A stretch of 16,142 nucleotides of DNA. Source: a virus. The notes beneath the pieces are model-generated. The model was not told the origin of the DNA, did no database searches, and saw only the letters and a program-made list of their open reading frames with translations. Positions within the stretch are counted from its first letter, which is position 1, and every line of letters begins with the position of its first letter. Location of the stretch: UHGV virus genome UHGV-0156413; one strand, written 5' to 3'. Of this stretch, positions 3,633-8,860 are shown piece after piece. The translations under genes were made by a program, and so were the position numbers.

Positions 3633-5898
3633 AGCCTCCGGGCGTTGTGTCCCTCCGTCAGCATTTGCCGCAGGCACCGGTAAGACGTTTACCGGTGCTT
3701 ATGCATGGAACGCGCCACGCGAGGCCGTCGGGCGCGAAAGACCCCTTACACGTGACGAGATGCGTCAGGTGCAAGGTGTTTTATCCACGATTAACCGCCT
3801 GCCTTACTTTTTGCGCTCGCTGTTTACTTCACGCTATGACTACATCCGGCGCAATAAAAGCCCGGTGCACGGGTTTTATTTCCTCACATCCACTTTTCAG
3901 CGTCGTTTATGGCCGCGCATTGAGCGTGTGAATCAGCGCCATGAAATGAACACCGACGCGTCGTTACTGTTTCTGGCAGAGCGTGACCACTATGCGCGCC
4001 TGCCTGGAATGAATGACAAGGAGCTGAAAAAGTTTGCTGCCCGTATCTCATCGCAGCTTTTCATGATGTATGAGGAACTCAGCGATGCCTGGGTGGATGC
4101 GCATGGCGAAAAAGAATCGCTGTTTACGGATGAGGCGCAGGCTCACCTGTATGGTCATGTTGCTGGCGCTGCACGTGCTTTCAATATTTCCCCTCTCTAC
4201 TGGAAAAAATACCGTAAAGGGCAGATGACCACGAGGCAGGCATATTCTGCCATTGCCCGTCTGTTTAACGATGAGTGGTGGACTCATCAGCTTAAAGGCC
4301 AGCGTATGCGCTGGCATGAGGCGTTACTGATTGCTGTCGGGGAGGTCAATAAAGACCGTTCTCCTTATGCCAGTAAACATGCCATTCGTGATGTGCGCGC
4401 GCGCCGCCAGGCAAATCTGGAATTTCTTAAATCGTGTGACCTTGAAAACAGGGAAACCGGCGAACGCATCGACCTTATCAGTAAGGTTATGGGCAGTATT
4501 TCTAATCCAGAAATTCGCCGGATGGAGCTGATGAACACCATTGCCGGTATTGAGCGTTACGCCGCCGCAGAGGGTGATGTGGGGATGTTTATCACGCTGA
4601 CCGCGCCGTCAAAGTATCACCCGACACGTCAGGTCGGAAAAGGCGAAAGTAAAGCCGTCCAGCTAAATCACGGCTGGAACGATGAGGCATTTAATCCAAA
4701 GGATGCGCAGCGTTATCTCTGCCGCATCTGGAGCCTGATGCGCACGGCATTCAAGGATAATGATTTACAGGTCTACGGTTTGCGTGTCGTCGAGCCACAC
4801 CACGACGGAACGCCGCACTGGCATATGATGCTTTTTTGTAATCCACGCCAGCGTAACCAGATTATTGAAATCATGCGTCGCTACGCGCTCAAAGAGGATG
4901 GCGACGAAAGAGGAGCTGCGCGAAACCGTTTTCAGGCAAAACATCTTAACCGGGGCGGTGCTGCGGGATATATCGCGAAATACATTTCAAAAAACATCGA
5001 CGGCTATGCACTGGATGGTCAGCTCGATAACGACACCGGCAGGCCGCTGAAAGACACTGCAGCGGCTGTTACCGCATGGGCGTCAACGTGGCGCATCCCG
5101 CAATTTAAAACGGTTGGCCTGCCGACAATGGGGGCTTACCGTGAACTACGCAAATTGCCTCGCGGCGTCAGCATTGCTGATGAGTTTGACGAACGCGTTG
5201 AGGCTGCACGTGCCGCCGCAGACAGTGGTGATTTTGCGTTGTATATCAGCGCACAGGGTGGGGCAAATGTTCCGCGTGATTGCCAGACTGTCAGAGTCGC
5301 CCGTAGCCCGTCGGATGACGTTAACGAGTACGAGGAAGAAGTCGAGAGAGTGGTCGGCATTTACGCGCCGCATCTCGGCGCGCGTCATATTCATATCACC
5401 AGAACGACGGACTGGCGCATTGTGCCGAAAGTTCCGGTCGTTGAGCCTTTGACTTTAAAAAGCGGCATCGCCGCGCCTCGGAGTCCTGTCAATAACTGTG
5501 GAAAGCTCACCGGTGGTGATACTTCGTTACCGGCTCCCACACCTTCTGAGCACGCCGCAGCAGTGCTTAATCTGGTTGATGACGGTGTTATCGAATGGAA
5601 TGACACGGAGGTCGTGAGGGCGCTCAGGGGGGCATTAAAACACGACCTGAGAACACCAAATCGTCAGCAAAGAAACGGAAGCCCGTTAAAACCACATGAA
5701 ATTGCACCATCGGCCAGACTGACCCGGTCGGAAAGAATGCAAATTACCCGTATCCGCGTTGACCTTGCTCAGAACGGTATCAGGCCGCAGCGATGGGAGC
5801 TTGAGGCGCTGGCGCGTGGCGCGACCGTAAATTATTACGGGAAATCTTTCAATTATCAGGTCGCTGATGAGTGGCCTGGATTTTTGTTACCCATTTGA
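3622..5898 (+). CDS. A: Rolling-circle replication initiator (P2 gpA-like HUH endonuclease)
   Basis: Start taken at ATG 3622 (MAVKASG...) rather than the upstream ORF-track start. Contains HUH-like motif PHWHMMLF and tyrosine motif GYIAKYISKNIDGY typical of Rep/gpA nickases. Confidence 0.9.
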   Translation: MAVKASGRCVPPSAFAAGTGKTFTGAYAWNAPREAVGRERPLTRDEMRQVQGVLSTINRLPYFLRSLFTSRYDYIRRNKSPVHGFYFLTSTFQRRLWPRIERVNQRHEMNTDASLLFLAERDHYARLPGMNDKELKKFAARISSQLFMMYEELSDAWVDAHGEKESLFTDEAQAHLYGHVAGAARAFNISPLYWKKYRKGQMTTRQAYSAIARLFNDEWWTHQLKGQRMRWHEALLIAVGEVNKDRSPYASKHAIRDVRARRQANLEFLKSCDLENRETGERIDLISKVMGSISNPEIRRMELMNTIAGIERYAAAEGDVGMFITLTAPSKYHPTRQVGKGESKAVQLNHGWNDEAFNPKDAQRYLCRIWSLMRTAFKDNDLQVYGLRVVEPHHDGTPHWHMMLFCNPRQRNQIIEIMRRYALKEDGDERGAARNRFQAKHLNRGGAAGYIAKYISKNIDGYALDGQLDNDTGRPLKDTAAAVTAWASTWRIPQFKTVGLPTMGAYRELRKLPRGVSIADEFDERVEAARAAADSGDFALYISAQGGANVPRDCQTVRVARSPSDDVNEYEEEVERVVGIYAPHLGARHIHITRTTDWRIVPKVPVVEPLTLKSGIAAPRSPVNNCGKLTGGDTSLPAPTPSEHAAAVLNLVDDGVIEWNDTEVVRALRGALKHDLRTPNRQQRNGSPLKPHEIAPSARLTRSERMQITRIRVDLAQNGIRPQRWELEALARGATVNYYGKSFNYQVADEWPGFLLPI

Positions 5899-6158
5899 GT
5901 GAAAATGCAGCGTGATTTTATATGCCTTTGAATGGATTATGCGAAGCGCCTCTAAGGCAGATGAGGAGCAATAGCATGCTGAAGTAGAAGGCTAAATTGT
6001 ATTGAATCGCTAGCATGTAATTTAAGGCAGCTATTTGATTCGAGTCATAAAAGAGCATCTATTTCGGCTAATAAAACCATTGCGAGTGACCTTTTGTCGA
6101 AGCATAATTCATCTCGAGCGAAGTCTTGCTAGTCTTTCATCGGAATGATGACAGGCGC

Positions 6159-6188
6159 AAAAAAACCACCCTGGCAGGTGGTTTTTTT
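6159..6188. terminator. Bidirectional rho-independent terminator
   Basis: A7-CCACC (6159-6170), loop CTGGCA, GGTGG-T7 (6177-6188): GC stem flanked by an A-run and a T-run, so a U-tract follows the hairpin in either orientation. Lies downstream of A and just 3' of the minus-strand small ORF. Confidence 0.6.
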
Positions 6189-6200
6189 GTTTGAAGCATA

Positions 6201-6314
6201 CTAAAGAATAATACTTACATGGATATTACTGACGTTTACTGACAAACCACTTGGACTACCATATGGATAGCCAAAGAGGGCCAGAACGAGAATGCAGTAA
6301 TAGCACTTCTTCAT
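6201..6314 (-). CDS. Putative small hydrophobic peptide (37 aa; not in the ORF track)
   Basis: Minus-strand ATG at 6314-6312 preceded by CAGGAGGAGAT; translation MKKCYYCILVLALFGYPYGSPSGLSVNVSNIHVSIIL then stop; terminator immediately 3'. No homology assessed. Confidence 0.3.
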   Translation of the reverse strand: MKKCYYCILVLALFGYPYGSPSGLSVNVSNIHVSIIL

Positions 6315-6884
6315 ATCTCCTCCTGTAAGCAGAGGGCAATTTCCGCCGATATATGCGCTTCTAAGGCGGAGTTAATATTTAGCGAAGTCTTGCCCTGAAA
6401 TAATGCTCTGTTTAAACGCAAAGTGATCTGGCATATCACCGAACAGAGAGCCTGAACAACACAACATATAGTATGTCGTTGTTTCTGGTTGCATTTTATG
6501 TTGTGTAATACTGGTTTTGCATCAAGGATGTTTGAGCTTTTTTTGATATAGCTCAAAGTAAAAAGCAGGGACTACGGATGATAAGGTATTGAAAGCAATG
6601 TAAATTTTTTAAAGTTATTGGTGGCTAAAAAATGCACGATTTCAATGTGGCGGACTTAAATAAGCAATTAAAAAAGTCATAAATATCACTAAAATCATGG
6701 TGTTACGTTTTTTGTGGGAGCTGCGGTGACGCTTAAGTTGATTTGTCATTAAATAAGCCGTGCATGCAACAAGTGAATGTTTTTGCATGCGTCGGGGATG
6801 CCCGTTCCCGCTGCTTGCGGTCAGAGCTGGTGCGGATCCATAGTATCTATGCAACTGCATTAAAACCGCCACATGAAGCGGGCG

Positions 6885-6903
6885 GGCGAGGCGGGGAAAG
6901 CAC
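6885..6903. other. Putative cos site (19-nt cohesive-end sequence of P2-type phages)
   Basis: GGCGAGGCGGGGAAAGCAC at 6885-6903 matches the P2 cohesive-end sequence as I recall it; sits between A and Q as expected for a circularly permuted prophage. Memory-based, not searched. Confidence 0.55.
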
Positions 6904-6939
6904 CGCGCGTAAGATAAACAGAAGAGCGAAGGATTATGG

Positions 6940-6968
6940 TTGAGTATTTGTGTTTTTGTACATATGAT
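6940..6968 (+). promoter_or_regulatory. Candidate sigma70 promoter for the cargo operon
   Basis: TTGAGT (6940-6945), 17-bp spacer, TATGAT (6963-6968); followed by inverted repeat GTGTTT...AAACAC (about 6975-6997) and a GGAG Shine-Dalgarno before ATG 7010. Confidence 0.3.
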
Positions 6969-7009
6969 AAAAAGGTGTTTACGCTTAAAAACACATCAAA
7001 GGAGATGAT

Positions 7010-8311
7010 ATGGAAAATATAAAGATTGATAAGTTTCTCACTATTCAAAAAGTTGATATTCCTCTTAAGAAAGTGAATATATTTATTGGGCCTCAGGCAC
7101 AGGGGAAAAGTGTCATTGCAAAGCTAATAAAATATTTTAAAGATTATCCTATGGATATACTACGAGCTTCAACAGAGGGTAAAACTAAAAGAGATATATT
7201 GAAGGAGCAAAAGAATAAGTTTAGTAAAATTTTCCCTCAGCAGTATTGGGCTGATGATGAGTTTTTTATTGAGTATAGTAATAAGCACTATTGGGTGCGG
7301 ATTACTAATCGAAAAAATAGCAAAGGGTCATTGAAAATAGCCCTTTCTGAGAATTTAACGAAGACGATTGCTAAACTTCGTTTGATTGTACGAAAGGATT
7401 TAGATGAAAATATTGAGAATTCACTTGCAGAAAGCGTTACGAGAAGGCGTAAACGCGGAATTGAACATGAATTGCGAGTATGTCTTTCTCTAGGATTGTT
7501 TTCAGAACCAGAAACAAAGCTTGAAAGTGTTTTTTATATCCCCGCAGGGCGCTCTTTTTTTGCTAATTTGCAAAAAAATGTGTTTTCATTTTTATCCAGT
7601 AGTATAGAAATTGACTACTTTTTGACAGAGTTTGGTTCTCTGTATGAACAAACAAAAAAATTATTTAACCAAGATTACATGATTAGGATGCTTAGGGGGG
7701 CTGTGCCTCAACATGTTAATAAACTTGTGGAGGAGTTGATTTGCGGAAAATATATAACAGAAAAGGGTGAGGATTTTATTCGTCATGCTGCTAAGAAGAC
7801 GAATCTTAACAACTCGAGCTCAGGGCAGCAAGAAGCGTTACCAATGGCTTTAATGTTATCCTCATGGCCGTATTTACAGTCTATGACTAGTAAGAGTTTT
7901 ATTATTGAGGAGCCGGAGGCTCATCTGTTTCCTTCTGCCCAAGCAAAAGTTGTATCTTTAATAGCCTCAGCGTATAACCAAGCAGAAAGCTATTGTAGCT
8001 ATACAATAACAACACATAGTCCATATATTCTAAGTGCCTTCAATAATTTGATTCAAGCAGGTAATGCATTGAAGTGTATTAAGGGCAAGAATAATACCGA
8101 TATCGAACGCTTATATAAGCTTGTTCCAGAGTCTCAAATTATTGATTTTGATGATGTGACAGCTTATATGGTTAATGCTGGGAAAGTGACGGAAATACTG
8201 GATTCCGAACTAAATATATTAGATGCGAATGAAATAGATAGGATTTCCTCTATTTTTTCAGAGACTTTTGATGCATTGATTGATATCGAATATTCGGCTA
8301 CTGTGAATTAG
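7010..8311 (+). CDS. ABC-type ATPase of the AAA_21/OLD-like family (candidate defence ATPase)
   Basis: 433 aa. Walker A GPQAQGKS (aa 27-34), signature-like SSGQQ (aa 269-273), Walker B/D-loop FIIEEPEAHLFP (aa 297-308), H-loop TTHSP (aa 334-338). AT-rich codon usage unlike the phage backbone. Confidence 0.85.
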   Translation: MENIKIDKFLTIQKVDIPLKKVNIFIGPQAQGKSVIAKLIKYFKDYPMDILRASTEGKTKRDILKEQKNKFSKIFPQQYWADDEFFIEYSNKHYWVRITNRKNSKGSLKIALSENLTKTIAKLRLIVRKDLDENIENSLAESVTRRRKRGIEHELRVCLSLGLFSEPETKLESVFYIPAGRSFFANLQKNVFSFLSSSIEIDYFLTEFGSLYEQTKKLFNQDYMIRMLRGAVPQHVNKLVEELICGKYITEKGEDFIRHAAKKTNLNNSSSGQQEALPMALMLSSWPYLQSMTSKSFIIEEPEAHLFPSAQAKVVSLIASAYNQAESYCSYTITTHSPYILSAFNNLIQAGNALKCIKGKNNTDIERLYKLVPESQIIDFDDVTAYMVNAGKVTEILDSELNILDANEIDRISSIFSETFDALIDIEYSATVN

Positions 8312-8319
8312 GTGATTGA

Positions 8320-8757
8320 ATGTGTAAAAATTGCAAAGGAAAAACAAAAAATAAAATCATTGTGCTATCTGATAAAGGAACGTCAACGCAATTGTCAGTC
8401 ACAAATGATAATGAGTTGGAAGTTGAGCATAAGTTAATAGATGGTTGCGCTATTGTTGTTGGAGAGCGGTGTGATCATTATTTGAAGATTTATAACAATC
8501 AGGATGTTTCACATCTTTTTGTTGAACTTAAAGGAAGTGATGTTGAAAAAGCTGTTAAACAGATAGTGACAACTTTAAAGTCAGGTGTGATTAATGTAGG
8601 TGCTAAAGAAAAAAAACATGGTGCTATTGTTAGCACTAGGAATCCGCTAAACTCACCAGAAACCAATAGGTTAAAGAAGAAAATTCTTTTGAGTGACGGA
8701 GTGAATTTGCATTTCTATAAAATGAAGGCGCAGCAAAAAATAACTTCTTTTACATGA
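8320..8757 (+). CDS. Small partner protein, possible PD-(D/E)xK-like nuclease or effector (hypothetical)
   Basis: 145 aa; starts 8 bp after the ATPase stop with AGGTGA upstream. N-terminal CxxC (C2, C5); candidate catalytic core D52 ... E69-L-K71 (ERCDH ... FVELKG). Assignment is tentative. Confidence 0.7.
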   Translation: MCKNCKGKTKNKIIVLSDKGTSTQLSVTNDNELEVEHKLIDGCAIVVGERCDHYLKIYNNQDVSHLFVELKGSDVEKAVKQIVTTLKSGVINVGAKEKKHGAIVSTRNPLNSPETNRLKKKILLSDGVNLHFYKMKAQQKITSFT

Positions 8758-8770
8758 AGTGTTCTCTTGT

Positions 8771-8794
8771 ACAGGCATGCATTTGCATGCCTGT
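8771..8794. terminator. Perfect palindrome between convergent cargo operon and Q (terminator or protein-binding site)
   Basis: ACAGGCATGCA tt TGCATGCCTGT (11-bp arms); a short T-run (ATCTTTTA) follows about 8 nt downstream on the plus strand. Confidence 0.35.
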
Positions 8795-8860
8795 CGTGTA
8801 ATCTTTTACACTATATTTGTGTTGGTTCTAATCTTGTTATGTGTTTGTTTCGGTGATGGG

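Follow-up and report, generated by a model that had tools for sequence, protein, structure and literature searches.

The closest described system to the gene pair analysed here is WonAB, which is carried by the Vibrio cholerae prophage WASA-1 and composed of WonA, an OLD-family ABC ATPase, and WonB, described as 'a variant of the PD-(D/E)xK nuclease fold' (Adams et al., Nat Microbiol 2025; PMC12137116). In V. cholerae, phage ICP1 resistance depends on both wonAB genes, and the operon on its own is enough to confer it. Defence is lost in the WonA mutants K34A, R182A, E300A and H333A and in the WonB mutant K71A; the latter also loses its toxicity, with the protein still being produced (PMC12137116). 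WonB is unstable and degraded by Lon, and its overproduction kills only when active WonA is present. Upon WonB induction, cells cease translation with their genomic DNA intact; during infection, ICP1 DNA replication starts with only a 2.7-fold defect and capsids do not assemble (PMC12137116). V. cholerae WonAB placed in E. coli protects against Vequintavirinae, and WonAB homologues were found in 0.43% of genomes (PMC12137116). Our literature search found no later paper naming the substrate of WonB or the trigger of WonAB.

Here we analyse a 16,142-nucleotide stretch of viral DNA (UHGV virus genome UHGV-0156413; hereafter, the window), which corresponds to a P2-like prophage of E. coli. A sequence-only reading had proposed that a 145-amino-acid protein encoded at 8320–8757 contains a minimal PD-(D/E)xK-like core preceded by an N-terminal CxxC, and that it acts as a nuclease effector paired with an ABC ATPase. 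We find that this protein is very probably the orthologue of WonB found in E. coli P2 prophages, and WonB is the effector half of WonAB, a two-gene system for abortive infection. WonAB has been described before, and the finding is in that sense not new.

Identity of the gene pair

The route to WonAB was a PADLOC match of the upstream ATPase to PD-T4-4_A, which led to the description by Adams et al. (PMC12137116). The corresponding genes of E. coli E24377A (NC_009801.1), ECE24377A_RS06440 (WonA) and ECE24377A_RS06445 (WonB), are hit 2 in Supplementary Table 4 of that work, obtained with the authors' own MacSyFinder model. The WonB listed there and the protein encoded in the window are one residue apart (T113 against P113).

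Direct comparison using BLASTP gives 37% identity between the window WonA and V. cholerae WonA (E = 1e-75, over residues 2–406, the length available) and 39% identity between the two WonB proteins (E = 1e-12). The WonA residues K33, R181, E301 and H336 align with K34, R182, E300 and H333 of V. cholerae WonA. In WonB, 'FVELKG' is aligned to 'FIELKG', and the E69-L-K71 element carries the same numbers in both proteins.

Gene organization and expression signals

The first gene, wonA (7010–8311, plus strand), encodes a 433-amino-acid OLD-type ABC ATPase, identified by its Pfam matches (AAA_15, 4e-20; AAA_21, 7e-9), its PADLOC matches (PDC-M29A, 2.3e-31; AriA, 3e-25; PD-T4-4_A, 1.1e-16; NsnB, 4e-16, the last to the ATPase core only) and its match to V. 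cholerae WonA. The nucleotide-binding motifs are intact: Walker A (GPQAQGKS, residues 27–34, with K33), the signature (SSGQQ, residues 270–274), Walker B (FIIEEPE, residues 297–303, with E301) and the H-loop (THSP, residues 335–338, with H336). A PAGRSFF motif containing R181 spans residues 178–184. WonA has no close solved relative, the best match being a class 2 OLD protein (E = 0.006).

A Shine-Dalgarno sequence, AAGGAG, can be read at 6999–7004 (plus strand), 5 nt 5' of the wonA start codon. A consensus scan places a candidate sigma-70 promoter (TTGAGT-17 nt-TATGAT) at 6940–6968 on the plus strand, about 40 nt 5' of wonA; the region holds 10 promoter-like sites, which does not exceed the number in shuffled sequences (9.4), and only the position of this candidate speaks for it.

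The second gene, wonB (8320–8757, plus strand), encodes a putative 145-amino-acid variant PD-(D/E)xK nuclease, an assignment drawn from the translated open reading frame, its conservation, structural models and the match to V. cholerae WonB. The open reading frame is as originally described: its translation contains GCAIVVGERCDHYLKIYNNQDVSHLFVELKG, and C2, C5, C43, C51, D52, E69 and K71 all lie where they had been placed. The product is small (16 kDa) and basic (pI 9.4). On the plus strand, the codons of its principal residues are at 8440–8442 (D41), 8470–8475 (C51-D52), 8524–8526 (E69), 8530–8532 (K71) and 8560–8562 (Q81). wonB lies on the same strand as wonA, 8 nt from its end, and its Shine-Dalgarno sequence, read as AGGTGA at 8310–8315 (plus strand), 4 nt 5' of the ATG, overlaps the wonA TAG stop codon (8309–8311). 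This overlap suggests that translation of the two genes is probably coupled.

Downstream of wonB, 14 nt past its stop codon, is a perfect 10-bp hairpin formed by a GC-rich palindrome with a 4-nt loop (ACAGGCATGC-ATTT-GCATGCCTGT; 8771–8794, plus strand). RNAfold gives −23.5 kcal/mol for the segment 8758–8830, which covers the hairpin. It lacks an adjacent U-run and was not picked up by the terminator scan; the hairpin may be a terminator or a stabiliser. A GCATGC-containing stretch also occurs near cos, at about 6755–6795.

Setting of the cassette in the P2-like prophage

Over window positions 6900–8860, the cassette region is 99.7% identical at the DNA level to E. coli E24377A (NC_009801.1), where the annotated gene order is integrase, repressor, Cox, gpA replication endonuclease, 'AAA family ATPase', 'hypothetical protein' and portal. 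The cassette is rare among complete E. coli genomes, with only 10 carriers in 5,426. Its DNA was not found in any sequenced phage of the phage collection, P2-like phages included, and the only distant WonB-like proteins in that collection are encoded by two unannotated faecal 'Bacteriophage sp.' contigs. GC content is 33–39% over roughly 6000–8800, and about 35% in the cassette, compared with 50–60% in the phage backbone; this drop marks the cassette as acquired cargo.

A P2/P4-type cos cohesive-end sequence, GGCGAGGCGGGGAAAGCAC, is matched exactly at 6885–6903 on the plus strand (0 occurrences in 200 shuffles), and the same string is found in P4 cos-proximal cloned sequences (Table S2A of Rousset 2022). 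In the linear record of the P2-like Yersinia phage VB-YPM-4, the match to the window reaches the last base of the record at window position 6884, one base short of this string. The position of cos places the wonAB cassette between cos and gpQ, the portal gene; cos is the left border of the cargo slot, and the cassette lies at the left end of the packaged genome. The gpA–gpQ hotspot of P2, inside which the cassette falls, is documented to hold anti-phage systems (Rousset et al. 2022). The exact pair of ATPase and small protein is entered there as system 81, 'AAA_15/AAA_21', with 45 occurrences (Table S5B of Rousset 2022); system 81 protein sequences are absent from the table of tested systems in that study.

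The other half of the hotspot, between the end of gpA and cos (5899–6884, about 1 kb), contains no long open reading frame and has a declining GC content. On the map of phage P2, old and tin sit between gpA and cos. In the window, this segment is 91–93% identical to segments of P2-like phages annotated solely as 'hypothetical protein', and Rfam gave no match in it or anywhere else in the window. This half of the hotspot seems to have been left largely empty or to have eroded.

The E24377A prophage (NC_009801.1, 998581–1018541) is decayed, with a truncated portal gene, most structural genes gone and an IS21-family element within the tape-measure gene. wonAB is intact in it, which is consistent with selection for the cargo outlasting the phage.

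The WonB family and its genomic neighbours

The window WonB has no significant match in Pfam, NCBIfam or PHROGs. A word-indexed search recovered 18 close relatives, and an exhaustive profile search recovered 2,312 cluster representatives at E ≤ 1e-3, 958 of them at E ≤ 1e-10. Nearly all family members are stand-alone proteins of 130–150 amino acids (about 140). A second search, using a 149-sequence profile, returned 595 proteins; among the matches listed are Bacteroidales, many cyanobacteria, Planctomycetes and Ignavibacteriales, nearly all of the named ones being called 'hypothetical protein' and none having a Pfam domain. The 149 members themselves gave few and weak Pfam matches, which are concentrated in PD-(D/E)xK families (only 10 to HSDR_N, SduA_C, SfsA, RE_TdeIII and PDDEXK_9). 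On PADLOC, the window WonB matches PDC-M29B at 2.4e-4, and 128 of the 149 family members also match this model (best 2e-13). The family is basic, with a median pI of 9.2.

Conservation was assessed on an alignment of 276 family members, most of which are 25–40% identical to the window WonB. Five residues are invariant (D41, C51, E69, K71 and Q81, each in 276 of 276), and others are nearly so: D52 (275), N29 (274), L70 (273), and G72 and P109 (272 each). The retention of the D…ExK pattern in 276 diverged members indicates strong selection, as opposed to a chance motif.

The genomic neighbourhoods of homologues were read at 13 loci, made up of five reference-genome loci found with a 16-sequence alignment (Kosakonia, two Prevotella, Muribaculaceae and Bacteroidales) and eight independent metagenome or genome contexts. 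At all 13, a WonA-like ATPase lies directly upstream of the WonB homologue on the same strand, with the two genes abutting or overlapping. In Prevotella, further neighbouring genes encode an additional AAA_15 ATPase and DNA methyltransferases (D12 class or N6_Mtase type), and the setting is that of a defence island.

Some loci depart from the common form. Two Prevotella WonB homologues (3935–4867 in locus L003 and 3893–4819 in locus L004) are 308–310 amino acids long, with the WonB domain at about residues 20–145, followed by an acidic C-terminal extension of about 160 residues that is probably helical and has no Pfam match. In a single metagenomic lineage (L009 and L010, 2169–3495), WonA is divided into two open reading frames of 134 and 237 amino acids upstream of an intact WonB, which is probably due to a frameshift or pseudogene formation. 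An intact WonB beside a split WonA fits the published harmlessness of WonB alone (PMC12137116).

The PADLOC models PDC-M29, PDC-M47, PDC-M56, PD-T4-4_A and NsnB have this ATPase type in common, and the WonB family also gave weak matches to PDC-M56B and PDC-M47B. PDC-M29, PDC-M47, PDC-M56, PD-T4-4 and NsnB may all be parts of one superfamily of ABC ATPases with small nucleases that current catalogues split.

Fold and active site of WonB

AlphaFold2 models of WonB were generated from the 16-sequence alignment and the 149-sequence alignment (pLDDT 85.5 and pTM 0.84; pLDDT 90.7 and pTM 0.87), and are mutually consistent. The predicted order of secondary structures is β(34–39)–β(53–59)–β(62–70)–α(75–88)–β(98–104)–α(113–126)–β(128–133), the β1–β2–β3–α–β4–α–β5 order of restriction-endonuclease-like nucleases. 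The usual first helix is absent from the models; in its place is an N-terminal module of β hairpins with short strands at residues 6–9, 13–17 and 24–28.

The putative catalytic residues take up canonical positions in the models. D52 lies just before the β2 strand (53–59); E69 falls among the last residues of the antiparallel β3 strand (62–70; 'SHLFVEL'), with K71 immediately beyond it. The spacing between D52 and E69 is 17 positions. Q81 is located on the helix that follows β3, and D41 is an additional invariant acidic residue. The earlier proposal of a PD-(D/E)xK-like core is supported in this way by the conservation of D52, E69 and K71, by the predicted topology and by the orthology with WonB.

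A structural search with Foldseek had been suggested together with structure prediction as a check on that proposal. The leading matches were BamHI, PaqCI, FokI, MUS81-EME1, MspJI and Cap4; no score reached significance (E of at least 0.02, TM-scores of 0.3–0.45, with probabilities of 0.84–0.94 for BamHI, PaqCI and FokI). Sequence searches of the PDB with the 16- and 149-sequence profiles returned chance-level matches only (a PPR protein, E = 0.02; Rai1, E = 0.39). Alignment by hhalign of the family profile with the FokI cleavage domain, the sequence of which was checked against PDB 1fok beforehand, gave a probability of 0.4% and a short, uninformative alignment in which FokI D450 is paired with D41 and not with D52. 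Judged by computation alone, topology and motif conservation lend good support to the predicted PD-(D/E)xK fold of WonB, and no significant score does.

Cysteine residues

The N-terminal CxxC fared less well than the nuclease core. C2 falls in an insert column of the family alignment, and two or more cysteines occur within the first 14 residues in only 49 of 275 members; the CxxC is a local, clade-specific feature. The further suggestion that C2 and C5 form a small metal-binding site with C43 and C51 does not hold across homologues, which do not share four conserved ligands.

Three of the four cysteines are nevertheless widely conserved. C5 (codon 8332–8334, plus strand) is found in 266 of 276 members and C43 (codon 8446–8448, plus strand) in 269 of 276 (about 96–97%); C51, next to D52, is present in all 276. 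C5 and C43 tend to disappear together (Fisher P = 3e-4, with phylogeny ignored): two aligned members carry substitutions at both positions, three at C43 only and none at C5 only. V. cholerae WonB, the sole WonB studied by experiment (hit 15 in Supplementary Table 4 of PMC12137116), is without C5 and C43 and keeps the C-D dipeptide before β2. Since this protein is active, a four-cysteine metal site cannot be essential to the mechanism; whatever role C5 and C43 play, as a structural metal site or a disulfide, WonB can function without it.

Mechanism and alternative explanations

If the E. coli copy follows the steps shown for V. cholerae WonAB, its WonA would dimerise and carry WonB on its C-terminal extensions, whereas free WonB would be unstable and cleared by Lon. 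Upon infection, ATP-dependent WonA together with the nuclease site of WonB would halt translation and leave the chromosome undegraded, and the phage would be blocked after the onset of DNA replication and before capsid assembly. WonB probably targets tRNA or rRNA, as RNAs of the translation apparatus, and the cassette would presumably serve as accessory cargo that guards the lysogen against competing phages. The partnership of a nuclease effector with an ABC ATPase, put forward in the sequence-only reading, is upheld by the orthology with WonAB. The V. cholerae data speak against a simple scheme of a DNase released by a sensor: WonB is toxic only with active WonA, DNA remains intact and translation ceases.

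Two further readings are put forward tentatively, with clearly less than an even chance. In the first, WonB would be an ATPase-dependent RNase of restriction-endonuclease fold, repurposed to cut tRNA or rRNA and not DNA. In the second, C5 and C43 would form a structural or regulatory site, with a metal or a disulfide, beside the invariant C51-D52 in most of the family, the E. coli copy included, a site that would have been dispensed with in V. cholerae. The idea of an RNA target is a hypothesis that has already been published. The C5/C43 site is the sole element of these readings that is without discussion in the literature covered.

Four other explanations were weighed. The best fold matches of WonB are type II and IIS restriction endonucleases, some Prevotella homologues adjoin DNA methyltransferases, and the related ABC ATPase systems OLD and Gabija act on DNA, all of which would suit a restriction-like DNase, with the ATPase recognising foreign DNA, the nuclease degrading the phage genome and the cell surviving. 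We consider this very improbable, given that in V. cholerae the replication of ICP1 is reduced only 2.7-fold, genomic DNA is intact after WonB induction and the phenotype is one of growth arrest and translation loss, that is, abortive infection (PMC12137116); moreover, the window cassette has no methyltransferase. It is very improbable that the pair works as a type II- or type IV-like toxin–antitoxin system, in which the ATPase would sequester a small toxin and defence would follow from loss of the antitoxin. The AAA_21 match is annotated 'putative AbiEii toxin, Type IV TA system', and in V. cholerae overproduction of WonB is toxic whereas its co-expression with wonA is not (PMC12137116). However, the AAA_21 name covers a broad ABC ATPase family and does not denote antitoxin function, and WonA is required for toxicity and does not neutralise it, WonB alone being non-toxic in V. 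cholerae without wonA (PMC12137116). This dependence rules out a simple sequestration or toxin–antitoxin mechanism in that system.

The core without its usual first helix, the low fold-match scores and the lack of any reported in vitro nuclease activity for the WonB family could also be accommodated by a PD-(D/E)xK-like subunit that has no catalytic activity and serves as an adaptor or binds nucleic acid, with the ATPase or a host factor supplying the actual activity. Against this, which we regard as highly improbable, a full D…ExK…Q set is kept across 276 sequences of about 30% identity, as expected of an active site, and the K71A substitution ends both defence and toxicity in the V. cholerae orthologue, the protein still being made (PMC12137116). 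The location of the cassette directly beside cos and the portal and terminase genes might in turn suggest a P2 housekeeping gene tied to cos or DNA packaging. To this explanation we attach next to no probability: GC content is about 35% compared with 50–60% in the backbone, the genes are found in 10 of 5,426 E. coli genomes and in 0 sequenced P2-like phages of the phage collection, homologous pairs occur in non-phage Bacteroidales contexts and metagenome contigs, cyanobacterial genomes encode WonB-family proteins, and the slot is a documented P2 defence hotspot (Rousset et al. 2022). The preferred reading is that of a WonAB abortive-infection pair.

The identification is chiefly of use for annotation: in P2-like prophages of E. 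coli, wonA and wonB become the names of the genes labelled 'AAA family ATPase' and 'hypothetical protein', and the pair can be added to the abortive-infection defence systems housed in the P2 cos-proximal hotspot. A curated WonB profile would be useful for a family that has 2,312 representatives, no Pfam model and members nearly always named 'hypothetical protein'. The E. coli copy would be a convenient model of WonAB, in a genetically tractable host and a natural prophage context, with the V. cholerae system being active against Vequintavirinae coliphages.

Comparison with known systems

The catalytic domains of FokI and BamHI, the best structural matches of WonB, have in common with it the strand and helix order and the D-x17-(D/E)-x-K spacing (D450, D467 and K469 in FokI), yet sequence similarity is undetectable. 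Unlike these enzymes, WonB is predicted to have β hairpins in place of the N-terminal helices and no DNA-recognition domain, and its substrate is likely not chromosomal DNA.

The combination of an OLD-family ABC ATPase, as sensor or scaffold, with a nuclease effector links wonAB to PARIS (AriA/AriB), Septu, Gabija and P2 Old. PARIS is encoded in the P4 hotspot and kills by tRNA cleavage, and P2 Old is encoded in the P2 cos-proximal hotspot. The window effector differs from those of this group in its predicted PD-(D/E)xK fold, where theirs are Toprim or HNH, and the WonAB effector requires an active ATPase for toxicity in place of being released from it. PARIS itself was considered and rejected as an assignment: the small protein matches neither DUF4435 nor Toprim, and only the ATPase resembles AriA (3e-25). 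Menshen (NsnABC) was likewise rejected. It consists of three genes, encoding NsnA (ParB-DUF262), NsnB (DUF3696) and NsnC (an inactive PIN and a nuclease domain), whereas the cassette has two genes only, with no ParB or DUF3696 match and with NsnB matching the ATPase core alone.

Closer in composition are PD-T4-4 (Vassallo et al. 2022) and HEC-02 (an ABC ATPase with a NERD nuclease), which, like wonAB, pair an ABC ATPase with a small nuclease of the PD-(D/E)xK class. Adams et al. call PD-T4-4 similar in organisation to WonAB, with differences in the ATPase inserts and C-terminal extensions (PMC12137116). Membership of the PD-T4-4 family was rejected, as the window WonB matches neither the PD-T4-4_B nor the NERD model. 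[quoted passage not shown] 2024, bioRxiv 10.1101/2024.01.29.577857), and our literature search found no papers on PDC-M29. Both genes of the window pair match this system (PDC-M29A and PDC-M29B), only moderately, which places the window in a diverged branch.

The likeness is closest to V. cholerae WonAB. Both pairs are prophage-borne two-gene operons with the same gene order and the same ATPase motifs. They differ in their location, the E. coli copy occupying the cos–gpQ slot of a P2-like phage and the V. cholerae copy residing on WASA-1, and in the presence of C5 and C43, together with C2, in the E. coli WonB.
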